In this document: positions 32,321 to 56,160 of the stretch, piece after piece | How positions within the stretch are numbered: the stretch's first letter is position 1 | How the letters are laid out: every line of letters starts with the position of its first letter | From: Bacteroidota bacterium | GTDB taxonomy: Bacteria; Bacteroidota; Ignavibacteria; Ignavibacteriales; Melioribacteraceae | Direction of reading: 5' to 3' | DNA length: 64,000 bases | NCBI GenBank assembly: GCA_023453125.1 | Contig: JAEXUB010000108.1 | Coordinates: 4,694-68,693, forward strand | Program-made: the position numbers and the translations under genes | The notes under the pieces: generated by a model | The model's database searches: none | What the model saw: only the letters and a program-made list of their open reading frames with translations | Told to the model about the DNA's origin: nothing

Positions 32321-32347
32321 AAGCCCGTCAGCTGACGGGCTTTTTTA
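32321..32347 (+). terminator. Rho-independent terminator after the DPP-IV gene
   Basis: GCCCGTCAGCTGACGGGC, a perfect 7-bp stem with a 4-nt AGCT loop at 32323..32340, followed by T6. Confidence 0.85.
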
Positions 32348-32506: not shown

Positions 32507-34573
32507 ATGAATATTTTATTTACAAAGGTGAAAAATATAATTGCGCAGGGAACAGGATTTCTTTCAGCCGCAAAATTAAAGAGCTTATTCTTTTTATTAA
32601 TAATCATTATTAACGCCTCCCCTTTATTGAGGGCCCAGGATAGGGATACTCTAACCCTTGATAATGTGATGAAACTTTCACTTGAAGATCTTCTTGACGT
32701 AAAAGTTAAGGTTTCCACTTCCCTTCCCACCAGGCTTTACGGTTCACCGTCAACCGTAACTGTTATTGACAGAAATATTATCGAAAAATATAATTTTCTT
32801 TCGGTAGCCGAGGCAATTAGGACAATTGCCGGCGTTGAGATTCTGCAATCGAATCTTGATGTCAATATTCCAACCTTCAGAGGCGTTCTTCAGAATTTTT
32901 ATGCAAACAAGCTTCTCCTGATGGTTAACAACATCCCAACCTGGCAGCCTCTTTACGGCAATGGCACAATTGACAGAATAAGCATTAATGATATTGAAAG
33001 GATAGAAGTCCTTAAAGGACCAGCTTCAGTGCTATACGGCACCAACGCATTCAACGGAGTAATAAACATTATAACCCGCGAAGCTGGAGAAAACAGCATT
33101 TATGCCAGAATTACAGGCGGAATTCCATACACCGGATCAGCATCAGTAAATTTAAACTATTTCAGCGAGGGGTTTCATCTCTTTTTATCCGGCAGCAGCG
33201 AATATGAAACCAGCGAGCCTTACAAGATTAAACTTGCTCCCGATATTACCAGCTATGGGCAAACCTCCAGATACGGAAACGACACTCTTATTAATTTCTC
33301 AGAAGACACAAGAAAGTTTTCTTTTAGTCTTTTTTCCAAATATGAAGGACATTCGTTATTCCTTAATTTCTTCGGCCATACTTATAATTTCCCGGGAGTT
33401 TCTCTCTCCTATGCTACGGGGGGAGGGCATCCTCTTTTCAACAAAGGTACCATGGCAGGATATAAATTTGAGGCAGACCTAAATAACGAGGTTAAGTTCC
33501 TGCTGGATCTAAATTATGATTATTTCTGGCGTTATTATACTCAGAATGCCGATGAAACAAGCGGAATCCGTCTATCAGGCGACAGGTTTATGGGAGCATT
33601 AAAAACAATATACTCCTTTAGCGAGACTATAAGCAGTGAATTTGGCGCCGATATACAGTACGGGCGCTGCTTAGGGCACTATAACCTAGATCCGAGAACC
33701 GACTTTATTACAAATATTAATCTGGACAACTCAAAGAATATGACAGAATGGTCTATGTTCCTTCAGACTTATTTTGATTACAGATGGATTACTTTCTCGG
33801 GGGGAATTAGATATACAGGCAATGAAACATTCGGCAGCAACATATCGGGACGGCTTTCGGCAAACATCAACATAAACAAATTCAACACATTAAAGTTTAA
33901 TTTTGGACAGTCATTCAGAACACCCAATCTCTTAGAACTCTATTTCAACCATTGGACCATAGTCGGAAATCCAAACCTGAAACCGGAACTAAATAATACA
34001 TTTGAAATTTCATATCTCTTTGGCTTAGACAATTTACTCGCTCAAATTACGGGATATTATTCCTCCTACAGCAGCCTGATACAGAGAATACGCACTTCCG
34101 ACAACCTCTCTGTGCCTGCGACATACCGGAACGTTTCCGATTTTGATGCCAAGGGACTGGAAGTGGAAATTAAGTATGACAATCCTTCTTTTATTAACTG
34201 CTTCCTTAATTACAGTTATGTGAGCGGAGAGGGTCCTGCCGCATATTCAAATTTCCGGTTTGTTCCAGCTCATACTGTTTCGGCCGGAATCAACAAATCA
34301 TTTAATGCATTCTTCATTTCGGCCAATCTGCATGCTTATTCAGAAACAGACGGACTGCTGGGTACAATATCCGGGCAGATGCTTGCCGACCTTCATTTAG
34401 GATATAAGCATAAATTCGGCGGAGTTAGTTTAATTCATACAATTTCAATTAAAAATCTTACCGAAAGCGATATGCTGATTCCGGAGTACATAAGACAGCG
34501 CCCCACAATTAACACCTTACCTACAGCCGGGGCCGGAAGAAGATTAGTCTATACTGTAAATCTAAATATATAA
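32507..34573 (+). CDS. TonB-dependent outer-membrane receptor
   Basis: Signal peptide, the plug block IERIEVLKGPASVLYGTNAFNGVINIITR, and a long beta-barrel with aromatic/Gly repeats. Confidence 0.85.
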   Translation: MNILFTKVKNIIAQGTGFLSAAKLKSLFFLLIIIINASPLLRAQDRDTLTLDNVMKLSLEDLLDVKVKVSTSLPTRLYGSPSTVTVIDRNIIEKYNFLSVAEAIRTIAGVEILQSNLDVNIPTFRGVLQNFYANKLLLMVNNIPTWQPLYGNGTIDRISINDIERIEVLKGPASVLYGTNAFNGVINIITREAGENSIYARITGGIPYTGSASVNLNYFSEGFHLFLSGSSEYETSEPYKIKLAPDITSYGQTSRYGNDTLINFSEDTRKFSFSLFSKYEGHSLFLNFFGHTYNFPGVSLSYATGGGHPLFNKGTMAGYKFEADLNNEVKFLLDLNYDYFWRYYTQNADETSGIRLSGDRFMGALKTIYSFSETISSEFGADIQYGRCLGHYNLDPRTDFITNINLDNSKNMTEWSMFLQTYFDYRWITFSGGIRYTGNETFGSNISGRLSANININKFNTLKFNFGQSFRTPNLLELYFNHWTIVGNPNLKPELNNTFEISYLFGLDNLLAQITGYYSSYSSLIQRIRTSDNLSVPATYRNVSDFDAKGLEVEIKYDNPSFINCFLNYSYVSGEGPAAYSNFRFVPAHTVSAGINKSFNAFFISANLHAYSETDGLLGTISGQMLADLHLGYKHKFGGVSLIHTISIKNLTESDMLIPEYIRQRPTINTLPTAGAGRRLVYTVNLNI

Positions 34574-34599
34574 TTTGGTTCAATACAGGTTATCATACT

Positions 34600-35145
34600 A
34601 TGGCATTTAATAAAAAACCGGCCTTTGCAAAAAGCACCTTTATAACAATGATTCTATTAATTGTTTTTACGGGACGCTCATTTTCGCAAAGCAATGAATA
34701 TCTTGTAAAAGCGGCTTACATAGAAAAATTTGCCCGATTTACCGAATGGCCGGCCAGGGCGCTGGAAGGGAAATTTATAATTGCCATCCTGGGCAAAGAT
34801 CCTTTTAACGGGGCTCTTAAAGATATAGCCGGAAAAGAAAAAATTAAAGGGCTCCCGGTAGAGGTACAGATTATCAATGACATATCGGAGCTTGGAAGAT
34901 GCCATATACTTTTCATTGCCAAAGAAAGGGGGAACTCCCTTAATCAAATTCTTTCTCATCTGGGCTCACGGCACATTCTTACCGTAAGCGACTCAAAAGA
35001 TTATTCCGAAAAAGGAGTGCATTTTAACTTTTACTTTACCGATAAAAGCACGATTCATTTTGAAGTTAATCCGTCAAGCTTAAAAAAATCGGGATTAAAT
35101 ACTGATATGTATCTTCTTCAGTTCGGCAAAAAGGTTGGAGGCTGA
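34600..35145 (+). CDS. YfiR-like periplasmic protein (DUF4154)
   Basis: The signal peptide is followed by YLVKAAYIEKFARFTEWP, CHILFI and VHFNFY...IHFEVN, the pattern I associate with DUF4154/YfiR. Confidence 0.75.
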   Translation: MAFNKKPAFAKSTFITMILLIVFTGRSFSQSNEYLVKAAYIEKFARFTEWPARALEGKFIIAILGKDPFNGALKDIAGKEKIKGLPVEVQIINDISELGRCHILFIAKERGNSLNQILSHLGSRHILTVSDSKDYSEKGVHFNFYFTDKSTIHFEVNPSSLKKSGLNTDMYLLQFGKKVGG

Positions 35146-35146
35146 T

Positions 35147-38100
35147 GTGTTGAATTCTTTTTCAAACTTTTCAATCCGCAACAAAATAATCCTGATAGTA
35201 ATGATGATAAGCATCATTACCACCTCTATCAGCATTTTTATGAGTCTTAAACTTGAAATTGCCGATTATAAGGATAAAGCCGCAGACGAAGCCGTTACTA
35301 ATGCGCGCCTGATTGGACAGTATTGTGTAATGCCTCTTGAATTTAATTACCCGGCAAATGCAATTGAAACCCTGGAAAAATTAAGCACCGTCCCTTTCAT
35401 AACAGACTGTCTGCTTTACGATGCCGGAAACAATCTTTTTGCCGAGTATCGCAAGGATGCCGGCAACAGGGCCGAAATTCCGGATGAACTGACTGAGGAA
35501 GGATATATCTTTGAAGACGATTTCATATACGTTCTGTACAAAATAGAATACAAAGGAGTTCATTACGGAAAACTTTACCTCAAAGCCCATGCGGGCATAA
35601 GCGAAATTGTATCCGGCAAGGTTTACACCGGATTATTACTTGTAGCCGGAATTCTTTTCCTTTCATTTATCCTTACTACCCTTTTACAAGGCTACATAAC
35701 TGCCCCAATTTTAAAATTAAAGAAATTCACGGCCAAGATATCCGAGACAAAAGATTATTCTCTCAGGATTCAGCCTTATGGAACTGATGAAATAAGCAAT
35801 CTTTATACTGAATTCAATTTACTTTTGAACACACTCCAGAAAAGCGAAACAGATATAAATGAGGCTCATATTTCCTTAAAATCAAGCGAGGAATTATTGA
35901 GGCAGAACCGTAATATGCTTCTTAATATTATGGATACAATTCCACAGTCTGTTTTCTGGAAAGATATAAATTGTGTTTATAAAGGATGCAATAAAAATTT
36001 TGCCTATTCTCTGGGCTATTCAAGTCCTGCGGAAATTATTGGCAAAAACGACTTTGAACTATCCCCTCCTGAACTTGCCGTAAATTATATAGCTGACGAC
36101 AAGGAGGTAATGGAATCAGGAATAATTAAGCATCATATTCTTGAAGAAGTTGTGAGCCGGAACAAAACCAGTATGTGGGTTACAACTACTAAAGCGCCAT
36201 TATATGATTCAGAGGGAAAGGTAACAGGTATTCTCGGCATGCTTGAGGATATCAGCGAGCGGAAAAAAGCCGATGATGCATTAAAAGAAAGCGAAGCATA
36301 TAATAAGGTGCTTTTCCGCGATTCTAACATACCTCTTGTTGTAATGGATTCCGAAAGCCTCCGGTTTACCGATTGCAACGATGCCGCAACGAGAATTTTC
36401 GGATTCGGTTCCAGGGAAGAGCTTTTGGGGCTTTCAATCGAGGATGTGTCTCCCCCTCTTCAAAAAGAAAAAAAATCATCGTCCGATGCAATTGCCGGAA
36501 TGATTGATATTGCATTAACTAAGGGGGCGGTGCTCTTTGAATGGCAGCATTTAAAGCGTTCGGGAGAAATCTGGGACGCCGAAGTGCATCTTATGTCATT
36601 TACTTATAAAAATAAGCAATGGCTTAAATTCAGTCTGATGGATATAACCGAGAGAAAAAAAGCAAATGAGAGTTTAAAAGAGAGTGAATGGTTTTTAAGC
36701 AAGGCACAGGAAATTGCCCGCTTCGGAGCATATAAACTAGATTTTGCAACCGGATACTGGACAAGCTCCAAATTACTTAACGAAATATTCGGAATCGATG
36801 AATCTTTTGAGACTAATTTGGAAGGATGGATTAGGATTGTTCATCCTGAATGCAAAGAAGAAATGAGTGAATATCTGGTACGTGAGGTTATTAAAGGGAA
36901 AAAACCATTCGATTACCAGTACAGAATATTAAGGATTAATGACTGCGCGGAAAGATGGGTCCACGGAAGGGGAACTCTTGAATTTGACGAATCGGGAAAT
37001 CCCATAACAATGATAGGAACCATTCAGGATATAACTGACAGGAAACAGGCCGAAGAGGCAATCAGGCAAAGCGAAATTAAGTACAGGCTACTTTTTGAGA
37101 ATATGACAGCCGGTTTTGCCCTTCACGAAATGCTGTGGGATGATAAGGGAAATCCGGTTGATTACATATTTATTGAAGCCAACCCGGCGTACGAAAAACT
37201 TACCGGCATTAAAATTGCCGACATAACCGGCAAAAGAGTGAAAGAGCTAATACCAAATCTTGAACAGGAGTGGATAGATAAATTCGGTAATGTTACGGCA
37301 ACAGGAGAACCAATTTCCTATGTAAATTTTGTAGGCGCTATTGGAAAGTATTACGACACATATGCTTTTAGGCCTGGTACTAATCAATTTGCTGTTGTAT
37401 TCACCGATATAACAGAAAGAGTGCTGTCCGAGGAAAAGCTTCAGAAGAGCGAAGCGCGTTTAAATGAAGCCCAGAGGATTGCCCATATTGGCAACTGGGA
37501 ACTGGATCTTTCCACTAACATACTTACCTGGTCCGACGAAGTGTATAGAATATTAGGAATTGAAAAAACTGATGAAGAGCTTACATATGAAGGGTTTATA
37601 AATCTTATTCATCCCGATGACCGCCAAATGGTTATTACCGCCTATTCCGATTCCCTAAAAAACAGAACTCCATATGACTTTATTCATAGAATCCTATTTG
37701 GAGAGGGCAACGTAAAATTTGTTCATGAACAGTGCGAAACAAATTATGATGAATCGGGGAATCCAATTCATTCTTTCGGAACTATTCAGGATATTACCGA
37801 TTATATTAATGCTCAGGAAGCGCTGAGGGACCGGGAAGAGAAGCTGAAATTCTTCTTTGACACAATGGCTCAGGGAGTGGTTATTCAGGATACTTCCGGG
37901 AAAATAATTGAAGCGAATGATGCAGCATGCCGGATATTGGGATTGACTATGGACCAGATGCTGGGCAAGACGATTTACGATCCGGAGTGGAAACTAATTA
38001 AAGAAGACGGAACTCCTATGGGGCCGGATGATATGCCTTCAACATTGGCTCTTACCGGAGGCAGGCCGGTTGAAAATATATTCTTCGGGGTCTACATACC

Positions 38101-39748
38101 CGCACTTAAGAGACACAACTGGCTCCTTACAAGCTCCGTACCGAAATTCAAACCGGGGGAAAACAAGCCTTATATTACAATTACCACCTTTACCGATGTG
38201 ACCGAGAGAAGGGAAATTGAAGAGGAACTTAGAAAGCACAGGGAGAACCTTGAAGAGCTTGTAAAAGAAAGAACGCGCGAACTCGCCGATTCAAATGCAC
38301 TTCTTCAAAGCGCAAAGGAAAATGCCGAAGCTGCAAACAGGGCAAAATCTGTTTTCCTTGCTAATATGAGTCACGAGTTGAGAACTCCGATGAATGCAAT
38401 TATCGGTTTTTCTGAAATTCTTGAAAAACTGGTTACCGAACCAAAACAGAAGAATTATCTCACTAAAATTCAGTCGGGAGGCAATACTCTCCTCTCTTTA
38501 ATAAATGATATTCTAGATCTTTCGAAAATTGAGGCAGGGAAACTTGCAATTACTTACCGGCCCGTATCCGTGCACAAAGTATTTGACGAAACATTTCAGA
38601 TATTCACACAGAGAATGGCAGAAAAAAGCATTGAGCCTACAATTGAAATCTCTCCCGACATACCCCGCTCCGTAATTATGGACGAAACAAGGCTGAGGCA
38701 AATACTTTTAAATTTAATCGGGAACGCAGTAAAATTCACAAAAGGGGGTTCTGTATCTCTTAAAGTATGGAGTAAATTCGATATTGACTCAACACGCAGC
38801 TGTTTTGACCTCTGCTTTTCTGTAGAAGATACAGGCATTGGAATTCCTGAAGACCAGTATGATCTTATATTTGAACCTTTCGAACAGCAGAAGGGAAGAG
38901 CCGGGTTTGATTTCGGCGGCACAGGACTTGGGCTTTCAATTACTAAAAACCTTGTAACGGCACTAAATGGGGAGATTAAGGTAAAATCGGCAATTGATAA
39001 GGGTGCAACCTTTACAGTAATACTTCGCGAGGTTGAAGTCTGTATTACAGAAACCGATGAATCGGCTGAAAATATGAAAAGCATTTTTAATTTCGAAGCA
39101 GTGGATTTTGATAAGGCAACTATTCTGGTTGTGGATGATATTGATTACAACAGAGACCTGATACGGGGTTTTCTTGCAGGATACAACTTCACTATCCTTG
39201 ATGCTGAAAACGGAAGCAAGGCTCTTGATCTGGCAAACAAATATAAACCGGATATGATTCTTCTTGACATGAAAATGCCCGTAATGAACGGATACGAAGC
39301 GGCTTCTATTCTGAAAAACGACCCTGCGATGAAGAATATTCCGATTATATCAATTACCGCATCTGCGCTTACTGAAGATGAGATGAAAATCTCGAGCCTG
39401 TGCGACGGATATCTCCGCAAACCGATGCACCGGCACGAGCTTGTTGAAATGCTGATGAAGTATCTCTCTCATAAAGTTAACGATGAATTTATTACCGCCG
39501 CCGGAACTGCAGAGGAACCGGTTTATACTTTAGATCAATACATAGGTAAACTTGATCCTATGGTTATAGGCGAAATGATAAAATCAGCCGATATGGCCGA
39601 TGTTTTTAAACTCCGGGCACAAATTGAAAAATTTGAAAGTTCACTACCCGGACTGGCACGTCTTCTATATTCATTAATTGATAAGTTCGACTATGATAAA
39701 TTGAAAGAAACCCTTAAATTGCTTGGACGGAAAGATGGAAGAAAGTAA
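35147..39748 (+). CDS. Hybrid sensor histidine kinase: TM-periplasmic (CHASE8-like)-TM-HAMP, six PAS/PAC, HisKA, HATPase, REC, ~100-aa tail
   Basis: H-box ANMSHELRTPMNAIIGF. The N/G boxes are NLIGNAVKFT and GTGLGLSI. REC motifs are VVDDIDYN, LLDMKMP and RKP. PAC linkers of the DITERKKA type recur six times. The tracked ORF starts at TTG 35135. I prefer GTG 35147, which lies 5 nt after GGAGG (35137..35141) and right after the yfiR-like stop. Confidence 0.9.
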   Translation: MLNSFSNFSIRNKIILIVMMISIITTSISIFMSLKLEIADYKDKAADEAVTNARLIGQYCVMPLEFNYPANAIETLEKLSTVPFITDCLLYDAGNNLFAEYRKDAGNRAEIPDELTEEGYIFEDDFIYVLYKIEYKGVHYGKLYLKAHAGISEIVSGKVYTGLLLVAGILFLSFILTTLLQGYITAPILKLKKFTAKISETKDYSLRIQPYGTDEISNLYTEFNLLLNTLQKSETDINEAHISLKSSEELLRQNRNMLLNIMDTIPQSVFWKDINCVYKGCNKNFAYSLGYSSPAEIIGKNDFELSPPELAVNYIADDKEVMESGIIKHHILEEVVSRNKTSMWVTTTKAPLYDSEGKVTGILGMLEDISERKKADDALKESEAYNKVLFRDSNIPLVVMDSESLRFTDCNDAATRIFGFGSREELLGLSIEDVSPPLQKEKKSSSDAIAGMIDIALTKGAVLFEWQHLKRSGEIWDAEVHLMSFTYKNKQWLKFSLMDITERKKANESLKESEWFLSKAQEIARFGAYKLDFATGYWTSSKLLNEIFGIDESFETNLEGWIRIVHPECKEEMSEYLVREVIKGKKPFDYQYRILRINDCAERWVHGRGTLEFDESGNPITMIGTIQDITDRKQAEEAIRQSEIKYRLLFENMTAGFALHEMLWDDKGNPVDYIFIEANPAYEKLTGIKIADITGKRVKELIPNLEQEWIDKFGNVTATGEPISYVNFVGAIGKYYDTYAFRPGTNQFAVVFTDITERVLSEEKLQKSEARLNEAQRIAHIGNWELDLSTNILTWSDEVYRILGIEKTDEELTYEGFINLIHPDDRQMVITAYSDSLKNRTPYDFIHRILFGEGNVKFVHEQCETNYDESGNPIHSFGTIQDITDYINAQEALRDREEKLKFFFDTMAQGVVIQDTSGKIIEANDAACRILGLTMDQMLGKTIYDPEWKLIKEDGTPMGPDDMPSTLALTGGRPVENIFFGVYIPALKRHNWLLTSSVPKFKPGENKPYITITTFTDVTERREIEEELRKHRENLEELVKERTRELADSNALLQSAKENAEAANRAKSVFLANMSHELRTPMNAIIGFSEILEKLVTEPKQKNYLTKIQSGGNTLLSLINDILDLSKIEAGKLAITYRPVSVHKVFDETFQIFTQRMAEKSIEPTIEISPDIPRSVIMDETRLRQILLNLIGNAVKFTKGGSVSLKVWSKFDIDSTRSCFDLCFSVEDTGIGIPEDQYDLIFEPFEQQKGRAGFDFGGTGLGLSITKNLVTALNGEIKVKSAIDKGATFTVILREVEVCITETDESAENMKSIFNFEAVDFDKATILVVDDIDYNRDLIRGFLAGYNFTILDAENGSKALDLANKYKPDMILLDMKMPVMNGYEAASILKNDPAMKNIPIISITASALTEDEMKISSLCDGYLRKPMHRHELVEMLMKYLSHKVNDEFITAAGTAEEPVYTLDQYIGKLDPMVIGEMIKSADMADVFKLRAQIEKFESSLPGLARLLYSLIDKFDYDKLKETLKLLGRKDGRK

Positions 39749-40715
39749 AAAGAACATATTGATAATCGATGATATTCCGGACAATCTAACCGTATTATCG
39801 GAGCTGCTCATTGCAGAGGGTTATACGGTACGCCCGGTTACTAGCGGCTCTGCCGCACTCAAAACAATTGCCAATGCAATTCCGGATCTCATCCTTCTCG
39901 ATATTAAAATGCCCGAAATGGACGGCTTTCAGGTCTGCAGAAGAATTAAAGCCGACGAAAAACTGAAAGACATTCCGGTTATTTTTATTAGCGCTTACGG
40001 GGAAGAAACCGAGAAAATCAAGGCATTCGAAGCAGGAGGAGTTGATTATATACTGAAACCGTTCCATTCCGGAGAAATTTATGCCCGCGTGAAAACCCAT
40101 TTATCACTTGCCGAAGCAAAAAAAAATCTTGAGAATCTTAATTATAATCTTGAAAAAATGGTTTTTCAGAGAACAATGCAGCTTGAAGAAAGCAACGCGA
40201 AATTCAAAAAATCGGAGGAAATGTTTTCAAAGACATTCCATCTTAATCCCCTTTCAATGATTATTTGCACCATTAAAGAGCACAGAATATTGGAAGTGAA
40301 CAAGGCCTTTGAAAAGAACATTGGATACTCATCTGCAGAGGCAATTGGAAAAACTATGGATTCGCTGAAAATATTAAGCGATATTGACTCGGTTGAATCG
40401 GCAATCAACCGGGAAACTGGAAATAAATTCAGGAATATTGAAACCTTATTTACAGCAAATGGGAATGAAACAAGGACCGGACTTATTTACTGCGAAAGAA
40501 TAGATTTTGCCGATGAAGAATGCAATTTGATGGTAATTGAAGATATTACCGGATTAAAACAGAACGAAGCAAAAATAAAGGACCAGCTCGAAGAACTTCA
40601 AAAATGGTTCAGCGTTACTGTTGACAGGGAAGAAAGGGTAATGGAATTGAAATCCGAGGTTAATGCCCTTCTTTCAAGGCTTAATGAACCGCCTAAATAT
40701 ACTACCACAAAATGA
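39735..40715 (+). CDS. Response regulator REC + coiled coil + PAS, no recognisable output domain
   Basis: MEESKKNILIIDD, LLDIKMPEMDG and LKPF define the REC. A PAS-like region follows (PLSMIICTIKEHRILEVNKAFEKNIGYS). The start overlaps the kinase gene end by 14 nt. Confidence 0.85.
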   Translation: MEESKKNILIIDDIPDNLTVLSELLIAEGYTVRPVTSGSAALKTIANAIPDLILLDIKMPEMDGFQVCRRIKADEKLKDIPVIFISAYGEETEKIKAFEAGGVDYILKPFHSGEIYARVKTHLSLAEAKKNLENLNYNLEKMVFQRTMQLEESNAKFKKSEEMFSKTFHLNPLSMIICTIKEHRILEVNKAFEKNIGYSSAEAIGKTMDSLKILSDIDSVESAINRETGNKFRNIETLFTANGNETRTGLIYCERIDFADEECNLMVIEDITGLKQNEAKIKDQLEELQKWFSVTVDREERVMELKSEVNALLSRLNEPPKYTTTK

Positions 40716-40718: not shown

Positions 40719-41801
40719 TTAAGCTTTTTTACATGGGAGCTTTACCCTAACAATGGTGTGGCTCTTCTTTTTGCTTTCAATCTCCAGGCTTCCTCCGTGC
40801 ATCTGAACAATATTTTTCACTATTGCGAGTCCGAGACCATTCCCCTGCTGACTGAAATCCTCCCTGCTGAACTGCTGGAATAATCCGATCTGCTCAATTT
40901 CCGAGTCAGTCATTCCTATTCCGGAATCTTTAATTTCGATTGTATATAATTCATCCGAACAGGTGCCGTTAACTTCAACACTGCTCCCCGCCTCGGAATA
41001 TTTTGCGCTATTTTCAAGTATCTCTTTCAGCATTCTGACCATTTGCAGGTCGTCTACTTCAATTTCTGCAGGTAAGACTGAAATCTTTATATCGTCCGAA
41101 CGTTCCCTCAGCATATAATGATTTTCTATTATGCTGTCTATTAACATCTTATCAAAAAGCACTTCATCAGTATTTTTTCTTTCTGACGGTTTGGAACGGG
41201 CAACATTCAACTCTGCATAGGCTATAAATTTTTCTATCCTGTTATGAAGTCTGTTTGCAGACCAGAGAATTCTCTCTACCATTTCCTTTAATTGAGTCTT
41301 TTCCATCTCCTCAATTCCTTCAAGCACCAGATGAGAATAGCCGATTATTGAAACAAGGGGAGTCCTTAATTCGTGAGGTATATACATATTGATATTCTTG
41401 ATAAGAGAATTGAACTGGTCCCTGACTTCTTTCTGTTTTTCCATTCTGATTTCAATAGCCTTAAGAAGATCGGACGACGAAAAAGGTTTTGTAATATAAT
41501 CATCAACTCCCAGATTGAGGCCGGCCCTAATTGATGAAAGATCAGAATGCGCCGTAAGGAAAATAAATGGAATGAACTTTGTATCGAAATCGGATTTAAC
41601 ATATTTATGGAACTCATATCCGTTCATCTTAGGCATCATAATATCGCAGATTATGAGATCCGGTTTAGTCTGTTTAAGCAGAGCAACCCCTTCGGTACCG
41701 TCACTGCCGCACATAACCTCATATCCTTCAGAAGAAAGAAGTTCGGTTAAATTATTCATAATATTTTCATCATCTTCAACTACAAGTATTACCTTTTTCA
41801 T
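40719..41801 (-). CDS. REC-HisKA-HATPase fusion (response regulator / histidine kinase)
   Basis: The N-terminal REC has VVEDDE, ICDIMMPKMNG and TKPF. The H-box is IPHELRTPLVSIIGYS. The HATPase region has GNGLGLAIV. Confidence 0.88.
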   Translation of the reverse strand: MKKVILVVEDDENIMNNLTELLSSEGYEVMCGSDGTEGVALLKQTKPDLIICDIMMPKMNGYEFHKYVKSDFDTKFIPFIFLTAHSDLSSIRAGLNLGVDDYITKPFSSSDLLKAIEIRMEKQKEVRDQFNSLIKNINMYIPHELRTPLVSIIGYSHLVLEGIEEMEKTQLKEMVERILWSANRLHNRIEKFIAYAELNVARSKPSERKNTDEVLFDKMLIDSIIENHYMLRERSDDIKISVLPAEIEVDDLQMVRMLKEILENSAKYSEAGSSVEVNGTCSDELYTIEIKDSGIGMTDSEIEQIGLFQQFSREDFSQQGNGLGLAIVKNIVQMHGGSLEIESKKKSHTIVRVKLPCKKA

Positions 41802-41809
41802 TACGACCT

Positions 41810-43663
41810 CTAATTAAGATTAGTATTGAGAGGCAGTTCAACTGTAAACCGGCTCCCTTCCCCTGTTTTACTCTCCAGTTTTATAGTGCCCCGATGCAGT
41901 TCTACAGATCTTTTAACTATAGACATACCGAGTCCGGTACCCCTTATGGCTCCGATATTGCTCCCCCTGTCAAACGGGTCAAAGATTCTTTTCTGATCTT
42001 CTTCCGGTATTCCTATTCCGTTATCGGAGACTTCAAATATAATTGTTCCATCACCGTCTTTCGCTTCAAAACTAACCAGGCCTCTTTCTCCGGAAAACTT
42101 AATGGCATTGGAAAGAAGATTGTTAAGAATATGTTTTAAAAGCTTTTCGTCAATTTCATAAATTTTTCCTGCAAGCCTGTAATGGAAATCGAGTATGTTG
42201 TTTTCATTTGTAAGTGTTTTTGCCTCATCAACAATAACTGAACATAGATTTTCAAGATCTACCGGCTGGGGGTCAAAACTTATTTTTCTTGCCTCGGCCC
42301 TGCTTACCGTAAGAACGTCATCCATTAATCCGGTTAGATATTTTATGGCTTTTTTAATCCTGTCCGTGTGCACAAAAAATCTTTCTTTGTCTCTGTTTTC
42401 CCAATGTTTTTCAGAAAGCTCAGTGGAAGAAAGAATAGTTGCAAGCGGAGTTCTGAATTCGTGGGAGGCGGTTGAAATAAATTCCGATTTAAGCGCATTT
42501 AATTCCTTTTCTTTCTCCAGAGCCGCAATTACCTTTTCTTCAGCTTCTTTCTGCTTAAGAATTTCTTTTTGCAGAAGATGATTTAGTTCTTCAAGACTCC
42601 TGGTTCTCTCCGAGACTATGTTCTCCAAATGAAGCCTGTAATCGGCAAGTTCCTTTTCTATCTTCTTTCTTTCCGAAATGTCTTTTGCAATTCCAATTAC
42701 TCCTTTTGGTGAGCCGTCCTCTTTGTAAAGCAGCGAGAGACTTAGTTCTGCATAGAACCTGTCCCCGTTCTTTTTAACAAATATATATTCATCATTTGAA
42801 TGAGTTCCTTCAACAATGGCTTTTTCAAGATTTCTGTATATCTTATCCAATTCCCCCTGTTCAATAATTTCTCTGGCACTATGGCTCATCAATTCCATTT
42901 TTGATGAATAACCATGCATTTTGGCTGCGGCACCGTTAGCAAGAATTATATCCCCCTCAATGCTGAGAAGCAAAATAGCATCCGGCGAAGTTTCAATAAG
43001 TGTACGGTACTTCTCTTCGCTTTCTTTCAATAAAGCTTCCGCCTTCTTCCTTTCGGTAATATCAATACTTGCGCCCCGGTATCCAACGAGTTCATTCTTT
43101 GAAGATATAACAGGGGAAGCGTTCGATTCAAGAATAACATCGTTTCCGTTTTTATGCGAGAATACTGCCACATAACTTTTCAAAGAGTTTCTATTTAAAA
43201 ATGCCTGTTCAAGATCCAATCTTAAAGTGGGATTCTTTTCAAGATTAAGCAGGTCGTAAATTGTTTTATTTTCTATTACCTCTTCAGGGCTATATCCAAG
43301 TATCACCTTAACGACCGGATTAACGTATGCAAATTTACCGCCTATCCCTATTTCCCAGATTATTTCACCCGAATTTTCTGCAATCTGCTTAAAACGGTCT
43401 TCGGATCTCCTGAGAAGTTTTTCCGAACCGATAATCTGTTTAACCCTTCGGGCAATCAGAAAATATAGGAGAGTTGAGGTAAAAAGAATAAAGAAAAACC
43501 CCTTTAGCATTGCGATTTTAATAATTACAGAAGGATTTGAAGTAAATAACTCTACAACCGAGTCGGATAGAAAAATCCAGAGACTGCCGAAAAAGACGTA
43601 AACAGCAACAATTTTTACAACTGCCAGCCGGTCTTTATACTTAAGTGTAGCATTCTTATTCAA
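41810..43663 (-). CDS. Membrane PAS sensor histidine kinase (2 TM, 2 PAS, HisKA, HATPase)
   Basis: Two N-terminal hydrophobic helices, two PAS/PAC modules ending in DITERKKAE and DISERKKIE, the H-box STASHEFRTPLATI, and GTGLGMSIV. Confidence 0.9.
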   Translation of the reverse strand: MNKNATLKYKDRLAVVKIVAVYVFFGSLWIFLSDSVVELFTSNPSVIIKIAMLKGFFFILFTSTLLYFLIARRVKQIIGSEKLLRRSEDRFKQIAENSGEIIWEIGIGGKFAYVNPVVKVILGYSPEEVIENKTIYDLLNLEKNPTLRLDLEQAFLNRNSLKSYVAVFSHKNGNDVILESNASPVISSKNELVGYRGASIDITERKKAEALLKESEEKYRTLIETSPDAILLLSIEGDIILANGAAAKMHGYSSKMELMSHSAREIIEQGELDKIYRNLEKAIVEGTHSNDEYIFVKKNGDRFYAELSLSLLYKEDGSPKGVIGIAKDISERKKIEKELADYRLHLENIVSERTRSLEELNHLLQKEILKQKEAEEKVIAALEKEKELNALKSEFISTASHEFRTPLATILSSTELSEKHWENRDKERFFVHTDRIKKAIKYLTGLMDDVLTVSRAEARKISFDPQPVDLENLCSVIVDEAKTLTNENNILDFHYRLAGKIYEIDEKLLKHILNNLLSNAIKFSGERGLVSFEAKDGDGTIIFEVSDNGIGIPEEDQKRIFDPFDRGSNIGAIRGTGLGMSIVKRSVELHRGTIKLESKTGEGSRFTVELPLNTNLN

Positions 43664-43753
43664 GCAAAATATTCCGCCGATTAAAACTATGAAATTAAAA
43701 ATTTACCCTTTAAAATCAAAGACATTACCATCCCGATATTTACTTCTCTATTT

Positions 43754-46700
43754 CTATTCAGCCGCCTGGAATCTGAGGGTGAAAATTGTACCGATTCCTA
43801 TTTCGCTTTCAACAGAAATTGAACCGTTAAGCAGCTCGGTATATTTTTTTGCAATCGAAAGTCCAAGCCCGGTCCCCTGGAATTCCCTATTAATTCCTTC
43901 ACTCACCTGTCTGAATTCCTCAAATATTATTCCCAGGTTGTCTTTGTCAATTCCAATTCCGGTATCTTTAATCCTTATAAATACATTATTTCCTTCTTTA
44001 CCAGCTTCAATTGAAACCGAACCCCGTTCAGTAAATTTGATTGCGTTATTAACGAGATTCTCCAGAATTACCGCAAAGAATGATGGATCGGAGTTTATAT
44101 ACATCCCGTCGGGACACTGTAAAACCATTTCAATGTGCTTATCAATGGCAGCACCGCGGAACATTTTCTCTATTGTTTCAAGTTCATCTTTTACATCGAG
44201 CCGTTTTAAAACTATCTGATATTTCTCCGATTCTATCTTTGTGAAATTTAAAATCATATTGAGTGTATTAAGAAGCCTTTTGCCGGATCTTTTAATTCCC
44301 TTAGACATTTCGACAAGCTCTTCATCTTTCAGGATTTCCGAAAGCAGATCGGAATAGCCGAGAATTCCAATTAATGGAGTTCTAAGTTCGTGGCTCATAT
44401 TGGCAAGAAAGAGATCCTTGGTTTTATTGGCTTCTTCTGCCTTATTCTTTGCATCCATTAACTGTTCAAGAATCATTTTCCTGTCTGTTATATCTTCTTT
44501 TACGGCAATAAAATGCGTTATCCTGTTCAGGTCATCCTTAATTGCTGATATAGAAGCCGATTCCCAGTAATATGTTCCGTCCTTTTTTCTGTTCCGGAAT
44601 TGCCCTTTCCATAGTTTTCCGTCAAGAATTGTATTCCAAAGCTCCTTATATTCTTCGCTGGTTTTATTCCCCGAACTAAAAATTCTAGGATTTTTTCCAA
44701 TCACTTCATCATAAGAAAATCCGGTAATCTCCAGCAGGTAAGGATTAACATATTCAATAGTTCCTTTGACATCGGTAATAACTATTGAAACCGGGCTCTG
44801 TTCCGTGGCTTTAAATAATTTTTTTAAGTTTTCCTCATAGAGTTTCCTGGCAGTAACATCATGGGCTACTCCCTGTAAACCGCATACTTTACCGTTTTTA
44901 TAAACCGGATATTCAAAAACCTCTAAAAGTATTTTAGATCCGGATGCGTGTTTTACTTCAAGCACCATGGAGTTCTCTGTAAAGTCCCCGTTAAGGTGCC
45001 TGTGAGTCAATAATTTGGCGTTTTCATTAATTATACTATCCGTCAGGAACCAGCCCTTTTCCATAAGCCATAATTCAACCGGATAGCCTGTAATTTTTTC
45101 AACTGTAGAAGAGACGTAAGTAGTATTTGCATTCTCATCCTGCGTGTAAAAGAATAAATTGGGAGTGCCTTCAATTATAGCCCTCATCCTCTCTTCACTT
45201 CTTAGAAGCGATTCCTGAGAGGCTCTTTCTTCCGTCTGGTCCCTGAATACAAGAACAACGCCGGTAATGTTTCCGTCCTTATCTCTGATAGGGGCTCCGC
45301 TGTCTGCAATAGGTCTTCTGCTCCCGTCTTTTGAAATAAGTATTGTGTGGTTTGCAAGTCCAACTACAACCCCTTCGTTAAGAACTCTGCTTACAGGGCT
45401 TTCAACTTTATTTCCGTTATCTTCGCAGATAATGTTAAATACTTCATCAAGGTATTTACCCTTTGCCTCTTCCTCTTTCCATCCGGTCAATCCCTCGGCA
45501 ATTGGATTAATCTGCCTTATGAGTCCCGATTTATCAGTGCTGATAACTGCATCACCTATACTGTAAAGAGTTGTATGCAGTTCCTCCTTCAGCTCCCACT
45601 GCAGTTTTTCTGCTTCTTTTCTCTCGGTAATATCTCTTGTAATGTTCAGTATATGGTTTACCCCTTCGAGCTGAATGATGGAAGCAGACATTAGCCCGTA
45701 TTTTATGGACCCATCCTTCATCCGGAAGCGTGCCTCAAGGTTATTAACCTGCCCCGATTTTGAAAGCCCTTCAATCAGTTTACTCCTGGATTCGGCATCG
45801 GCCCATATGCTGATTTCTGCTGAAGTGCGCCCAACCACTTCTTCTTCGGTATAACCTGTAAGCTGTGTAAAGCCGTTGTTAACTGAAACGTATAGCCCGT
45901 CCGATAAGCGGTTAATATTAACCGAATCGGGACTTGTATAGAAAGCTGTTCTGAATTTCTGTTCGCTCTGCAGAATATTCTGTTCCGCTTTTTTTCTTTC
46001 TGTAATGTCCCTTATAACCGAAAGAAGGTATTTTTTTTCATTCAGATTTATTAAAGTGACGGAAATTGAACCGGTAAAAACAGATCCGTCTTTTTTCCTA
46101 AAATCGGACTCGTAATCATAAACCGAACCGGAACGGTTGATTGCATCAACAATTTTGTTTCTCCCCTCTTTCTCAATCCATAAACCGGCATCAACCGTAG
46201 TCCTGCCAATCAGTTCAGATGCCTTGAAGCCGAAAATCTGCTCGTTGCATTCTATAATCATTCCGGTTTCAATTTCAGTTATAAAAATAGCATCCCCGAT
46301 TGTTGCAAAAATTGACCTGTAAATCTCTTCCCGAATTTTTAATTCTTTTGCGGTTTTTTTCGAATCGGATATATCTTCAACAGTGCCCTCGTAATAAAGA
46401 GTAACACCGAATTCATCCTTAACGGATTTTGAACTTTCCCTAATAAAAAGTTCCGTACCGTCTTTTTTATACCAGACATCTTCCCAACCCCTGAGAGTCC
46501 CTTTTTCTTCAACCAGCTTTTTAAAATCAACCCTGCGGTAATTTGGTTCATACCCGTCTTCTTCCAGGTTGCGGTTAGAAAAATCCTCAAATGAATCATA
46601 ACCGAGCATTTTTATGAGGGTAGGATTTGCCAGCAGAATCCTCCCGTCGGGTGTGGTTCGGTAAAATCCGATATTATCATTTTCATAAAGGCTTCTGAAA

Positions 46701-47176
46701 GTTCTCTCTCTTTCGAGGAGCAGCTGTTCATCCTTTTTCTGTTTCGTTATATCTTCAACATTGCTTAAAATCAGGTCTTCATCATTTTGATTTATCAATA
46801 CGCCTGATACTTTTACTGTAATTGTATCCCCCCCGGCGGTAATTATCTTTCTCTCATAAGGGCCGTAAGAACCGTTTTCTTTGAGATTTTTCATCTGCTC
46901 GTTATCCGATTCATCGAAGCCTTCCGGGCTGACTCCCTTATAATTTAATTTGCGCAGCTCAGATAAATCATAACCCAGCATTTTAATTAGAGCTTTATTG
47001 GCATCAACAAATGCCCCGTCCAAACGGTTTATGGAAATTCCTATGGGAGATTTTTCGAAAAGCAGCCTATTGAATTTTTCACTCTCGCGCAGTTTGGCTA
47101 TAGTCATCTGCTGATCTTCCAGAAGATTAAGAAAAGCAGACTTGAGGTTTTCTGAATCCATGTTGTTTTTTGCCAT
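43754..47176 (-). CDS. Soluble multi-PAS sensor histidine kinase (about seven PAS/PAC, HisKA, HATPase)
   Basis: No TM segment. About seven PAS/PAC modules have recurrent DIT(E/D)RK linkers. The H-box is ANMSHELRTPLIGILGYS, with GTGLGLSIA in the HATPase region. Confidence 0.9.
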   Translation of the reverse strand: MAKNNMDSENLKSAFLNLLEDQQMTIAKLRESEKFNRLLFEKSPIGISINRLDGAFVDANKALIKMLGYDLSELRKLNYKGVSPEGFDESDNEQMKNLKENGSYGPYERKIITAGGDTITVKVSGVLINQNDEDLILSNVEDITKQKKDEQLLLERERTFRSLYENDNIGFYRTTPDGRILLANPTLIKMLGYDSFEDFSNRNLEEDGYEPNYRRVDFKKLVEEKGTLRGWEDVWYKKDGTELFIRESSKSVKDEFGVTLYYEGTVEDISDSKKTAKELKIREEIYRSIFATIGDAIFITEIETGMIIECNEQIFGFKASELIGRTTVDAGLWIEKEGRNKIVDAINRSGSVYDYESDFRKKDGSVFTGSISVTLINLNEKKYLLSVIRDITERKKAEQNILQSEQKFRTAFYTSPDSVNINRLSDGLYVSVNNGFTQLTGYTEEEVVGRTSAEISIWADAESRSKLIEGLSKSGQVNNLEARFRMKDGSIKYGLMSASIIQLEGVNHILNITRDITERKEAEKLQWELKEELHTTLYSIGDAVISTDKSGLIRQINPIAEGLTGWKEEEAKGKYLDEVFNIICEDNGNKVESPVSRVLNEGVVVGLANHTILISKDGSRRPIADSGAPIRDKDGNITGVVLVFRDQTEERASQESLLRSEERMRAIIEGTPNLFFYTQDENANTTYVSSTVEKITGYPVELWLMEKGWFLTDSIINENAKLLTHRHLNGDFTENSMVLEVKHASGSKILLEVFEYPVYKNGKVCGLQGVAHDVTARKLYEENLKKLFKATEQSPVSIVITDVKGTIEYVNPYLLEITGFSYDEVIGKNPRIFSSGNKTSEEYKELWNTILDGKLWKGQFRNRKKDGTYYWESASISAIKDDLNRITHFIAVKEDITDRKMILEQLMDAKNKAEEANKTKDLFLANMSHELRTPLIGILGYSDLLSEILKDEELVEMSKGIKRSGKRLLNTLNMILNFTKIESEKYQIVLKRLDVKDELETIEKMFRGAAIDKHIEMVLQCPDGMYINSDPSFFAVILENLVNNAIKFTERGSVSIEAGKEGNNVFIRIKDTGIGIDKDNLGIIFEEFRQVSEGINREFQGTGLGLSIAKKYTELLNGSISVESEIGIGTIFTLRFQAAE

Positions 47177-48141: not shown

Positions 48142-48801
48142 ATGAAAAACGACGAAAAAAGCATAGTCAGGGTTCCAGAACCCACATTAAGAAGACTTCC
48201 AAAGTATATTAACTTACTTGAAAAGTTAAAAAGAGAATCTGTCCAGTTTGTTTCAAGCAATCTGATATCGGAAGAACTGGGGCTGGATTCGATTCAGGTA
48301 AGAAAAGATTTGGCATTAACCGGAATTTCGGGTAAACCAAAACTCGGATTTAATCTTGGCGAACTCTTGCAGGCTTTATACCACACCCTTAACTGGGATA
48401 ATTCCAACGATGCTTTCCTGGCAGGAGCCGGAAGTCTTGGCTCTGCCCTTTTGGGTTATAAAACTTTCAAAGACTACGGGCTGAATATTATTGCCGCATT
48501 TGATGTCAATCCATCCCTAACCGGGACGAAGATTAATGAGACGGAGATTCTTCCGATTGATAAACTTGCTGAAATGATAACCCGGATGCATGTTAATATC
48601 GGGGTAATATGCGTACCTGCCGATGAAGCCCAGCAAATAGCTGACTTAATGGTCCAGGGGGGAATAAAGGCAATATGGAATTTTGCCCCGGTTCACCTTA
48701 AAGTACCCGCAGGCATTATTGTCGAGAATGCGCAACTCTCACAATCGCTTGGGGTTCTTACACATAAATTAGCCGAAAGACTAAAACCAAATACAAAATA
48801 A
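48142..48801 (+). CDS. rex: Redox-sensing transcriptional repressor Rex
   Basis: The N-terminal winged helix has PEPTLRRLPKYINLL. The Rossmann block is LAGAGSLGSALLGY. At 219 aa the length is typical for Rex. Confidence 0.9.
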   Translation: MKNDEKSIVRVPEPTLRRLPKYINLLEKLKRESVQFVSSNLISEELGLDSIQVRKDLALTGISGKPKLGFNLGELLQALYHTLNWDNSNDAFLAGAGSLGSALLGYKTFKDYGLNIIAAFDVNPSLTGTKINETEILPIDKLAEMITRMHVNIGVICVPADEAQQIADLMVQGGIKAIWNFAPVHLKVPAGIIVENAQLSQSLGVLTHKLAERLKPNTK

Positions 48802-48824
48802 AAGCTATAAACTACGGAGATAAT

Positions 48825-49346
48825 ATGAACAGAAATGATGTTAGTGATTCCGGAATGGCGAGGAAGTTTGACAGAGTATGTGCTATACTTGAACAGAACA
48901 ATTACTCCCCTTCAAAACTTATTCCCATTCTTCAGGCAATTCAGGAAGAATACCGATACCTGCCCGAGAAAATTCTCACTTTCGTTGCTACTTCTCTCGG
49001 GATTCCCCCGGCAAAGGTTTACGGCGTTGCCACATTCTATTCCCATTTTGCACTTAAAGCCAAAGGAAAATATGTAATTAAAATATGCGACGGCACAGCA
49101 TGCCATGTGCGCAATTCTATTCCTATTGTTGAAGCACTAAGAAAACGGCTTGAATTATCGGAAACAAAAAACACTACTGATGATATGATGTTTACAATCG
49201 AGACTGTTTCCTGCCTCGGTGCCTGCGGCCTGGCCCCCGTTGTAGTAATTAATGACGACGTTCATTCTCTTATGACCCCCGAAAAGGCTCTTGTTGTGAT
49301 TGAAAATATTGTAAAAGAAGAGGAGAGTGAATATGCACACAATTAA
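48825..49346 (+). CDS. hydC: [FeFe] hydrogenase subunit HydC (NuoE-like, [2Fe-2S])
   Basis: NuoE/24-kDa pattern: LIPILQAIQEEYRYLP, CDGTACHV, SCLGACGLAP. Confidence 0.88.
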   Translation: MNRNDVSDSGMARKFDRVCAILEQNNYSPSKLIPILQAIQEEYRYLPEKILTFVATSLGIPPAKVYGVATFYSHFALKAKGKYVIKICDGTACHVRNSIPIVEALRKRLELSETKNTTDDMMFTIETVSCLGACGLAPVVVINDDVHSLMTPEKALVVIENIVKEEESEYAHN

Positions 49347-51228: not shown

Positions 51229-51229
51229 A

Positions 51230-53260: not shown

Positions 53261-53263
53261 AAA

Positions 53264-55036: not shown

Positions 55037-56160
55037 TAACAGAACAGATAGCTAAGAAGCCGGAACATCCAAGCGGCGACGTTATAAGCACAGAAAGGGA
55101 TAATAATTCCATTATTCACATTCTGTGCGACGGCGCCGGCTCGGGCATTAAAGCCAATATTACGGCAACAATGTATGTCTCGAGAATAAAAGAATTAATC
55201 AGACGCGGTTTTTCAAAGCGAGAAGCATTTGCCAAAATTGTAAACTCGGTTGAAGAAAGCAAAAAGAAGGAACTCCCCTGTGCTTTCTTTACTCTGGTGC
55301 GGATTCTCAACGACGGCGTTGCTTCTATTCTGATGTATGATATGCCCGAACCTCTTTTTGTATGTCAGCGTTATTCAACCCCGTTAAAGAGCAGCAGCCA
55401 GATGCTGTTCGGAGGGCTTGTACGGGAATCTAACTGTTCTCTTAATCTGGGAGAAGGAATTCTGATATTCAGCGATGGTATTACACAGGCAGGCATTGGA
55501 AAAGGAATAAATAACGGATGGGGCATTGAAGGTTTAAATAAATTTGTGAATGAATGCCTCCGCGGCGGTGCAAATATAACTGAGCTGCCTAAATTAATCA
55601 TAAGCGAAACGAAGAAGCTATGGAAACATAAATGCGAGGATGACTGCTCCGTTTCCCTTATCTACTGCCGTAAAGGAAGAGTAATTAATATCCTCAGCGG
55701 CCCCCCTGCCAATCCAGACGATGACCATGCAGTTGTGAACAAATTCCTTGGTATGGATGGATTAAAAATTATCTGCGGGGCAACAACGGCAAAAATTGCC
55801 GCCCGGGTAATGAACAAACAACTCGAAATTAATGATGAATTTGCAAGCATAATTTCTCCGCCGAATTATGAGATTGAAGGAATCGGGCTCGTTACCGAAG
55901 GAGCAGTAACATTAAACCAGCTTTATAATGTAATGGGAGAAGACCTTTCCCTTCTTGAAAAAGGGAGCCCTGTAACAGCACTTTCGGCCTGGCTCAATGT
56001 TGCTGACAGAATTAACTTCTTTGTCGGGACTGCCGAGAATCCTGCCGGCTCAGACATAAGTTTTAAACAAAGCGGCATTCTTCTGCGCAAAAAAATCATT
56101 AAGCTTATTATTGAGAAATTGAGAGAGGAAGGAAAATTTGTTTATCTGGAAGAATTTTAG
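55012..56160 (+). CDS. PP2C/SpoIIE-type serine phosphatase with unassigned ~160-aa C-terminal domain
   Basis: The N-terminal ~215 aa carry HPSGDVIS...ILCDGAGSGIKAN...IFSDGITQAG...DDCSVSLI (PP2C/SpoIIE-like metal-binding Asp pattern). The gene overlaps hydS by 25 nt in another frame. Confidence 0.7.
   Translation: MGYLHLEVITEQIAKKPEHPSGDVISTERDNNSIIHILCDGAGSGIKANITATMYVSRIKELIRRGFSKREAFAKIVNSVEESKKKELPCAFFTLVRILNDGVASILMYDMPEPLFVCQRYSTPLKSSSQMLFGGLVRESNCSLNLGEGILIFSDGITQAGIGKGINNGWGIEGLNKFVNECLRGGANITELPKLIISETKKLWKHKCEDDCSVSLIYCRKGRVINILSGPPANPDDDHAVVNKFLGMDGLKIICGATTAKIAARVMNKQLEINDEFASIISPPNYEIEGIGLVTEGAVTLNQLYNVMGEDLSLLEKGSPVTALSAWLNVADRINFFVGTAENPAGSDISFKQSGILLRKKIIKLIIEKLREEGKFVYLEEF

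Follow-up and report, generated by a model that had tools for sequence, protein, structure and literature searches.

In this study, we analysed 64,000 nucleotides of a Bacteroidota genome of the family Melioribacteraceae (contig JAEXUB010000108.1, positions 4,694 to 68,693 of the forward strand; hereafter the window), focusing on four co-directional genes on its forward strand (32507-40715) that may form a trans-envelope signalling operon, best called a variant of the YfiBNR kind. The open reading frames encode a TonB-dependent receptor (TBDR; 32507-34573, 688 aa, recognised by Pfam and by its AlphaFold2 (AF2) model), a YfiR-like protein of the DUF4154 family with a signal peptide (34600-35145, 181 aa; Pfam, NCBIfam, AF2 and Foldseek), a hybrid histidine kinase (35147-39748, 1533 aa from a GTG start; Pfam, NCBIfam and hydropathy) and a response regulator composed of REC and PAS domains (REC-PAS; 39735-40715, 326 aa from an ATG start; sequence and Pfam). 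The TBDR gene is separated from the DUF4154 gene by 26 nt, the GTG of the kinase at 35147 lies one base past the DUF4154 stop codon (TGA, 35143-35145) and is preceded by GGAGG, and the REC-PAS gene shares its first 14 nt with the end of the kinase gene; with an alternative TTG start at 35135, the kinase would have 1537 aa. A preliminary description of this DNA had reported three co-directional genes with a 26-nt gap and a tight junction, which agrees with the open reading frames, the 1-nt junction and the 1533-residue kinase, and had omitted the fourth gene. The order TBDR, YfiR-like protein and membrane sensor, co-directional and tightly spaced, is also that of a gene triad for which NCBIfam holds models.

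Upstream of these genes, and 3' of a gene encoding a dipeptidyl peptidase IV (DPP-IV), an intrinsic-terminator hairpin can be read from the sequence (32323-32346, forward strand; GCCCGTC-AGCT-GACGGGC followed by a T run), and its position behind the DPP-IV gene indicates that a separate transcription unit begins for the four-gene cluster. The hairpin is also kept in L011, the closest relative. Rfam matches between 32200 and 32700 were weak hits to leader and small RNA models, confined to the hairpin; no riboswitch was found with Rfam in this region upstream of the TBDR gene, which leaves no clue to a ligand from this side. By Pfam, no OmpA-like (YfiB-type) gene occurs in or beside the operon, no sigma or anti-sigma gene adjoins it (the neighbours encode DPP-IV, kinases and regulators), and the window contains no uptake genes that hint at the ligand of the TBDR. 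There are likewise no tonB or exbBD genes in the window.

The TBDR carries a signal peptide and matches Pfam models of the plug (Plug, 2e-20) and the barrel (TonB_dep_Rec_b-barrel, 1e-29). In its AF2 model (pLDDT 83.6) the plug sits within a 22-strand barrel with short periplasmic turns, and its best fold match in the PDB by Foldseek is BtuB (1nqg, TM-score 0.83), with Cir and PfeA also matched. A Ton-box-like segment, DTLTL...LSLEDLLDVKV, which is common to many TBDRs, precedes the plug. In extracellular loop 11, residues P659, E660, Y661, R663 and N669 are invariant, a conservation pattern as expected of a real ligand-gated transporter. Pfam detected no STN signalling domain, and this, together with the lack of adjoining sigma and anti-sigma genes, upholds the earlier statement that the classical TBDR signalling extension and anti-sigma route are absent here. 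The best NCBIfam match, to the TOL_0244 TBDR model NF053590, covers the plug only (residues 54-195; 101.9 bits, with a cut-off of 645), and the TBDR of the window belongs to a different TBDR clade than the TOL_0244 family. Within the TBDR reading frame, at 32766-32794 on the forward strand, there is a perfect match to the sigma-70 consensus (TTGACA, 17 nt, TATAAT). We rejected it as a promoter, since it coincides with the stretch coding for the conserved plug motif VIDR..KYNF and has probably arisen by chance.

The second gene product matches Pfam DUF4154 (PF13689, "YfiR/HmsC-like") at 2e-35 and 122 bits, and the profile of its family matches solved YfiR structures in the PDB (E=4e-9). Foldseek comparison of the AF2 model (pLDDT 88) returned YfiR at the top (4zhu, 4yn7 and 5eb1; target-normalised TM-scores 0.72-0.83), and at the level of the model the YfiR fold of the DUF4154 protein is confirmed. 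Next after YfiR come single-lobe and bilobal substrate-binding proteins, including an R. marinus substrate-binding protein (6k1x) and the L-Trp-bound 3lft. The best NCBIfam match is the TOL_0243 YfiR-like periplasmic protein (NF053591; 98.5 bits, below the cut-off of 125), and the equivalog model for true YfiR (NF053586) scores 34.9 bits and misses its cut-off of 85.

The cysteine pairs Cys71-Cys110 and Cys145-Cys152 of YfiR underlie its redox control (PMC4655355), and a redox mechanism has been described for YfiR/HmsC (PMC4655355; PMC8846402). The YfiR-like protein of the window has a single cysteine, C101, the equivalent of YfiR Cys110, and the positions of YfiR Cys71, Cys145 and Cys152 are never cysteine in the alignment of the YfiR-like family. 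Because both cysteine pairs are absent, the redox control of YfiR and HmsC is not transferable to this protein, and redox sensing of the YfiR/HmsC type was ruled out for it. The most conserved residues of the family (K37, A38, W50, L166, L172 and L173) map instead to helix alpha1, the alpha1-beta1 loop and the C-terminal helices. These are the elements described by Li et al. as the YfiR surface for YfiB and YfiN (PMC4655355), and the conservation pattern predicts that this contact surface is retained in the YfiR-like family. YfiR also has a hydrophobic pocket that binds vitamin B6 and L-Trp (PMC4887326), with affinities in the 10 mM range (PMC4887326).

The kinase has the layout transmembrane (TM) helix, CHASE8 periplasmic loop, TM helix, HAMP (a weak match), about six PAS domains, HisKA, HATPase_c and REC by Pfam. 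The CHASE8 periplasmic sensor domain (35270-35581) scores 29.1 bits against a cut-off of 27, and by hydropathy the TM helices span approximately residues 8-33 and 162-180. Profile searches have thus borne out both domain identities put forward in the preliminary description, DUF4154 and CHASE8; the proposed order of TM helix, loop, TM helix and HAMP also holds, with a loop of about 128 aa rather than the claimed ~140. The N-terminal region (residues 9-231) also matches NF053592 ("sensor histidine kinase, YfiR-like protein-associated"; 138.7 bits, cut-off 194). By homology with YfiN, the YfiR-like protein presumably docks on the CHASE8 loop. This loop contains two cysteines, C60 (35324-35326) and C88 (35408-35410), and since the YfiR-like protein lacks the disulfide cysteines of YfiR, any redox input would be on the kinase side.

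The transmitter and receiver part of the kinase comprises HisKA (38345-38539), HATPase_c (38681-39031) and its own REC (39122-39454), all on the forward strand and assigned by Pfam. Its output is therefore HisKA-HATPase-REC, and no GGDEF domain is present on it by Pfam. The REC-PAS regulator has no DNA-binding or enzymatic output domain that Pfam recognises, and no HPt domain was detected by Pfam in either protein. Since its start overlaps the kinase stop, the REC-PAS protein is likely a phosphorelay partner of the hybrid kinase, and a REC-PAS gene also lies directly behind the kinase in L011 and L012. In L011 (8548-13150), whose YfiR-like protein is 69% identical to that of the window, the orthologous kinase appears as two overlapping open reading frames of 341 and 1212 aa, reflecting either a frameshift or an assembly error.

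To place this operon among its relatives, we surveyed 18 loci found through the DUF4154 protein. GTDB genomes supplied ten of them, and the other eight lie on contigs that encode homologues; the sample is biased toward relatives of the window's DUF4154 protein and includes the near-duplicates L013/L014 and L006/L007. A CHASE8-type sensor lies directly downstream of the DUF4154 gene in all 18 loci, and a TBDR gene lies directly upstream in 12 (L002, L006-L011, L013, L014 and L016-L018), including the highly divergent, Pfam-recognised TBDR of L006/L007. The same TBDR-DUF4154-CHASE8 triad is found on the P0070 contig, and when the TBDR itself was used as anchor, the two free-type homologues looked up at 48-49% identity (L019 and L020) both carried the triad. 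The surveyed loci lie in differing genomic contexts and their phylogenetic range includes the Fibrobacteres-Chlorobi-Bacteroidetes (FCB) group, Geobacteraceae and Krumholzibacteria, so that the adjacency of these genes is far beyond chance. No YfiB-like gene was found beside the pair in the surveyed loci. The outputs of the sensors vary, being a plain kinase, a hybrid kinase, a kinase with HPt, or GGDEF-EAL, the last carried on the CHASE8 protein itself in L018 and on the downstream regulator in L015 and L017; downstream regulators in relatives are often REC-PAS-GGDEF-EAL proteins. The proposed synteny of TBDR, DUF4154 and kinase or cyclase is thus widespread, as had been suggested, but the conserved unit is only the YfiR-like protein with its CHASE8 sensor. 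Given 18 of 18 loci with CHASE8 and 12 of 18 with a TBDR, we regard this pair as the core and the TBDR as a frequent, exchangeable and facultative partner. The copy in the window is a divergent one of the FCB group; its hybrid kinase is very large, is rich in PAS domains and has a REC-PAS partner.

DUF4154 and TBDR genes also occur together in other arrangements. In a locus of the Melioribacteraceae (L021, 336-7962), which lacks a CHASE8 sensor, two DUF4154 genes are followed by three TBDR genes and then by one gene each for a Reg_prop and a Y_Y_Y protein; a TBDR homologue there is 42% identical to that of the window. The absence of CHASE8 from this locus indicates that the association of TBDR with DUF4154 exists independently of it, and a second DUF4154-TBDR cluster without CHASE8 is found in L027. 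In L023, a kinase gene (2482-3969, forward strand) lies directly behind a TBDR gene whose product is 42% identical to that of the window, and the kinase consists of a signal peptide, DUF4154, a coiled coil, one TM helix and HisKA.

The architecture of the L023 kinase is that of a fused family of more than 110 clusters (P0241-P0360), with proteins of about 640 aa in which a DUF4154 head is joined through a stalk and one TM helix to HisKA-HATPase. In Ekhidna and further Bacteroidota, its members, which have no CHASE8, carry the name "YfiR/HmsC family protein". The stalk between DUF4154 and the TM helix is 141 aa long at the median and measures 130-149 aa in 106 of 112 members; proline and glycine together make up 1.8% of it, and its heptad periodicity (6.99/3.51 residues) keeps a near-constant phase over approximately residues 199-311 with no conserved break. 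From these features the stalk is predicted to be an uninterrupted coiled coil about 21 nm long. This length is about the width of the periplasm, so the DUF4154 head of these kinases would sit under the outer membrane, and the stalk suggests that DUF4154 acts there. Six more fused members seemingly share contigs with top homologues of the window's TBDR (40-50% identity), as judged from equal lengths of the longest contig, and the TBDRs in these six pairings include P0123 and P0124 (49-50%), the two closest non-orthologous homologues. The heads of the fused family make up a subfamily apart, with only 25-30% identity to the YfiR-like protein of the window; with identity this low, the argument from the stalk transfers to the window by analogy between modules and not by orthology. 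DUF4154 as a whole comprises about 29,000 clusters at 50% identity (E<=1e-3), and the top matches to the DUF4154 profile in a library of 1.84 billion proteins (P0361-P0385) have 340-390 aa and contain a tandem pair of DUF4154 stretches; these proteins may be pseudo-dimers or mimics of two-lobe binding proteins.

We propose that the four genes form a trans-envelope signalling operon that works as a partner switch like that of YfiBNR, in which the TBDR stands in for YfiB and physically contacts the YfiR-like protein, and we give this complete reading a probability of roughly 0.4. The preliminary description had predicted that receptor occupancy or TonB energisation is relayed via YfiR to the kinase; our results make such a relay plausible but support it only in part. 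Its parts do not stand equally firm. That the YfiR-like protein is a periplasmic co-sensor of the CHASE8 kinase is highly probable, considering the homology to YfiR-YfiN and the invariant pairing of the two genes. By homology to YfiR-YfiN and HmsC-HmsD, the YfiR-like protein would bind the CHASE8 loop and set the activity of the kinase. That the TBDR is the usual input device is a rather likely proposition, because TBDRs were recruited time and again to the same position, some clusters join DUF4154 and TBDR genes with no CHASE8, fused kinases lie beside TBDRs and the outputs are not transcription factors. Synteny and the fused sister family suggest that the TBDR would take the role of YfiB as outer-membrane partner. 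When loaded with ligand or energised by TonB, it may expose a generic periplasmic element, the Ton-box or plug face, which would capture the YfiR-like protein, perhaps via the conserved C-terminal strand and the hydrophobic pocket, and capture at the outer membrane would alter the amount of YfiR-like protein free for CHASE8. The kinase would then pass phosphate via its own receiver to REC-PAS and possibly to neighbouring kinases. YfiR uses beta-strand pairing and a hydrophobic pocket on YfiB (PMC4655355; PMC4887326), and by analogy both modes are consistent with a physical coupling to the TBDR, which is also favoured by the fixed length of the stalk in the fused family. More broadly, and only tentatively, DUF4154/YfiR-fold modules could be a general sigma-factor-independent read-out of TBDRs, docking on the Ton-box or plug face of the loaded receptor and reporting its occupancy or energisation to kinases or c-di-GMP enzymes, either as a soluble shuttle, as in the window, or as a head held on a ~21 nm stalk, as in the fused family.

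The closest described systems are YfiBNR of P. aeruginosa (DgcN in E. coli) and HmsCDE of Y. pestis, in which a secreted YfiR-fold protein is likewise found beside a sensor with the order TM, CHASE8, TM and HAMP and in which, if our model holds, the logic is also the same, in that an outer-membrane partner titrates the periplasmic protein away from the sensor loop to which it binds. The window differs from both in having a TonB-dependent transporter instead of the OmpA/Pal-like lipoprotein YfiB, and a 1533-aa hybrid kinase with REC-PAS instead of a GGDEF cyclase as output; relative to YfiBNR, it also lacks both YfiR disulfide pairs and has the gene order TBDR, yfiR-like, sensor. With FecA-FecR-FecI and FpvA-FpvR it would share a ligand-gated TBDR as the point of signal entry and a signal governed by what the plug or Ton-box side presents to the periplasm, but it has no STN domain, anti-sigma or ECF (extracytoplasmic function) sigma factor, and the proposed relay is a diffusible YfiR-fold protein with a histidine kinase. 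The fused kinases similarly couple DUF4154 to a kinase, yet do so covalently through the ~141-residue stalk and without CHASE8. LuxP-LuxQ, TorT-TorS and ChvE-VirA resemble the window's system in that a soluble binding-protein-like co-sensor serves a membrane kinase, and PfeA-PfeS/R in that sensing occurs downstream of import by a TBDR. These differ from the window in that its YfiR-like protein has a single lobe and no known ligand of high affinity, and neither an ABC importer nor a regulator of the transcription-factor type is present. To our knowledge, TBDR signalling has been described only via the route of STN domain, anti-sigma and ECF sigma factor, and YfiBNR only with the lipoprotein YfiB and a cyclase.

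A number of observations weigh against the TBDR as a dedicated physical partner of the YfiR-like protein. The TBDRs of 11 triads fall into at least five groups that are no more similar to one another than background (pairwise identity 0.17-0.23), and the TBDR of L006 is a sixth type. YfiR-like proteins within the FCB group nevertheless stay 0.34-0.44 identical across these TBDR clades; between the window and L013, for example, identity is 0.44 for the YfiR-like protein and 0.32 for the CHASE8 region, compared with 0.19, the background level, for the TBDR. Within the clade of the window itself, TBDRs diverge less quickly than YfiR-like proteins do (identity 0.48-0.76 versus 0.36-0.71), and the low identity across clades must therefore reflect non-orthologous replacement. 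By these sequence comparisons, a specific co-evolved interface between the TBDR and the YfiR-like protein is unlikely. TBDR homologues at 29-41% identity (L022 and L024-L034) mostly have no DUF4154 gene nearby, and these window-type TBDRs without DUF4154, together with the background identity across clades, led us to reject a dedicated, co-evolving TBDR clade. An N-terminal segment, LSLEELLxIKV, is present in TBDRs both with and without a DUF4154 partner, and a partner-specific N-terminal docking motif was rejected for that reason. The TBDR is missing from six of the 18 surveyed loci, and two of these (L001 and L012) share the flanking genes of the window (major facilitator superfamily transporter (MFS), thioesterase and DPP-IV) and keep an intact kinase, which indicates that the module can work without an adjacent TBDR. 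Adjacency of a fused kinase and a TBDR is proven at L023 only, and the stalk could in principle fold back, though no break is conserved. As unrelated TBDR clades occupy the same slot, any contact with the YfiR-like protein must use a generic feature of TBDRs, or else the link runs via a ligand.

The latter possibility is the main rival to physical coupling: the TBDR would import a small molecule, the YfiR-like protein would bind it, and its loaded or unloaded form would modulate CHASE8 in the manner of LuxP-LuxQ, TorT-TorS or ChvE-VirA, with no contact to the TBDR at all. Such a relay would easily explain the swapping of TBDRs, since the ligand alone would connect the parts, and it fits the invariant residues of TBDR loop 11, which suit a real ligand-gated transporter. 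In further support of it, the YfiR-like protein shares the fold of a single lobe of a periplasmic binding protein, with 6k1x and 3lft next among its Foldseek matches, and YfiR itself binds vitamin B6 and L-Trp (PMC4887326). A comparable layout with true binding proteins in the middle of the cluster is seen in L032 (3989-10028), where a TBDR 36% identical to that of the window is followed, in this order, by a Phosphonate-bd protein, an ABC_sub_bind protein (PF04392) and a TM-HAMP adenylate/guanylate cyclase. We nonetheless consider the relay less likely than physical coupling, as small molecules bind YfiR only in the 10 mM range, neither a riboswitch nor uptake genes point to a ligand, and YfiR-like proteins that are 44% identical lie beside unrelated TBDRs that probably import different ligands. 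A soluble ligand sensor would also, on the face of it, need no coiled-coil stalk of fixed length spanning some 21 nm.

It is also conceivable, with a probability lower still, that the YfiR-like/CHASE8 pair is an autonomous sensor of the periplasmic or envelope state and that the TBDR is merely its co-transcribed cargo or target. One third of the related loci keep the pair with no adjacent TBDR, two of them within the window's own flanks, and the TBDR partner is non-orthologous between clades; two-component systems beside the transporter that they regulate are also familiar, as with PfeS/R and PfeA. Were the TBDR mere cargo, however, its repeated and independent recruitment upstream of DUF4154 from at least five clades would be hard to explain, as would the DUF4154-TBDR clusters without CHASE8 (L021 and L027) and the fused DUF4154 kinase beside a TBDR (L023). 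The loss of the YfiR redox cysteines leaves the pair with no evident cue of its own, and its cognate regulators lack DNA-binding domains. A simple two-component system that regulates its own transporter is hard to reconcile with outputs that are phosphorelay or c-di-GMP enzymes instead of transcription factors. The suggestion that three unrelated neighbours are adjacent by chance is barely credible and already contradicted by the synteny survey, given that the gene order recurs across phyla and contexts, the junctions are tight or overlapping, and NCBIfam curators have made neighbourhood-named models of the same triad. Physical coupling of the TBDR to the YfiR-like protein remains our preferred reading, at the probability stated above.

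The triad models just mentioned were compared in NCBIfam release 20 (June 2026): NF053590 (TOL_0244 TBDR), NF053591 (TOL_0243 YfiR-like periplasmic protein) and NF053592 (YfiR-like protein-associated kinase). They are the best or best-specific matches of the window's proteins, all three of which miss the respective cut-offs. Full members of the triad occur in L016-L018, including a metagenome-assembled genome of Geobacteraceae, with TBDRs scoring 648-711 bits against the NF053590 cut-off of 645. The preliminary description held that the mechanism of this widespread triad is undescribed. This stands insofar as a literature search covering DUF4154, CHASE8, YfiR-like, TOL_0243/0244 and YfiR/YfiN/YfiB with TonB found no paper on a mechanism for the triad, with the qualification that the triad itself is already named in NCBIfam. 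The only published datum that we found on any member is a sevenfold increase of TOL_0244 on n-C28 alkane in a proteomic study (PMC6304351).

A large share of the sampled DUF4154 relatives adjoin a TBDR and a kinase or c-di-GMP enzyme, and our findings hint at a route, apparently widespread and so far unstudied, by which TonB-dependent transporters reach phosphorelay and c-di-GMP signalling. Should the TBDR indeed provide the input of the YfiR-like protein, the capture of nutrients or ligands at the outer membrane would be directly coupled, in many environmental bacteria, to phosphorelays and c-di-GMP. A general read-out of TBDRs by DUF4154 would, if real, add a second widespread class to TonB-dependent signalling across the envelope. 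In that case the coiled-coil kinases, with their stalk of fixed length, would provide a simple handle on signals that cross the periplasm, through changes in the length of the stalk.

Convergent to the operon, on the reverse strand, Pfam identifies genes for a REC-HisKA-HATPase protein (40719-41801), a PAS-PAS kinase (41810-43663) and a five-PAS kinase (43754-47176). The first two of these adjoin the operon in L011 and L012 as well, and by this shared neighbourhood the convergent genes (40719-47176) may belong to the same signalling network. Further downstream on the forward strand (48142-56160), a gene for a Rex-like repressor is followed by genes for a HydABC-type bifurcating [FeFe]-hydrogenase. 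Behind these lie the gene for a second protein resembling [FeFe]-hydrogenase, which ends in a PAS domain (53264-55036), and, overlapping it, that for a SpoIIE-type phosphatase (55012-56160); the two look like a sensory-hydrogenase regulatory pair. On the reverse strand at 56224-58167, one protein combines REC, an NMT1-like binding-protein domain and CheW, an unusual arrangement. At the other end of the window, a pectin/rhamnogalacturonan and arabinose utilisation cluster (1128-28103) encodes glycoside hydrolases (GH28 and two GH88, one of them fused to BNR_4), a GDSL esterase, BD-FAE, an arabinofuranosidase, araBAD-like proteins and an SSF symporter, and together with the relatives found this cluster suggests that the DNA comes from an FCB-group bacterium that lives anaerobically and degrades polysaccharides.

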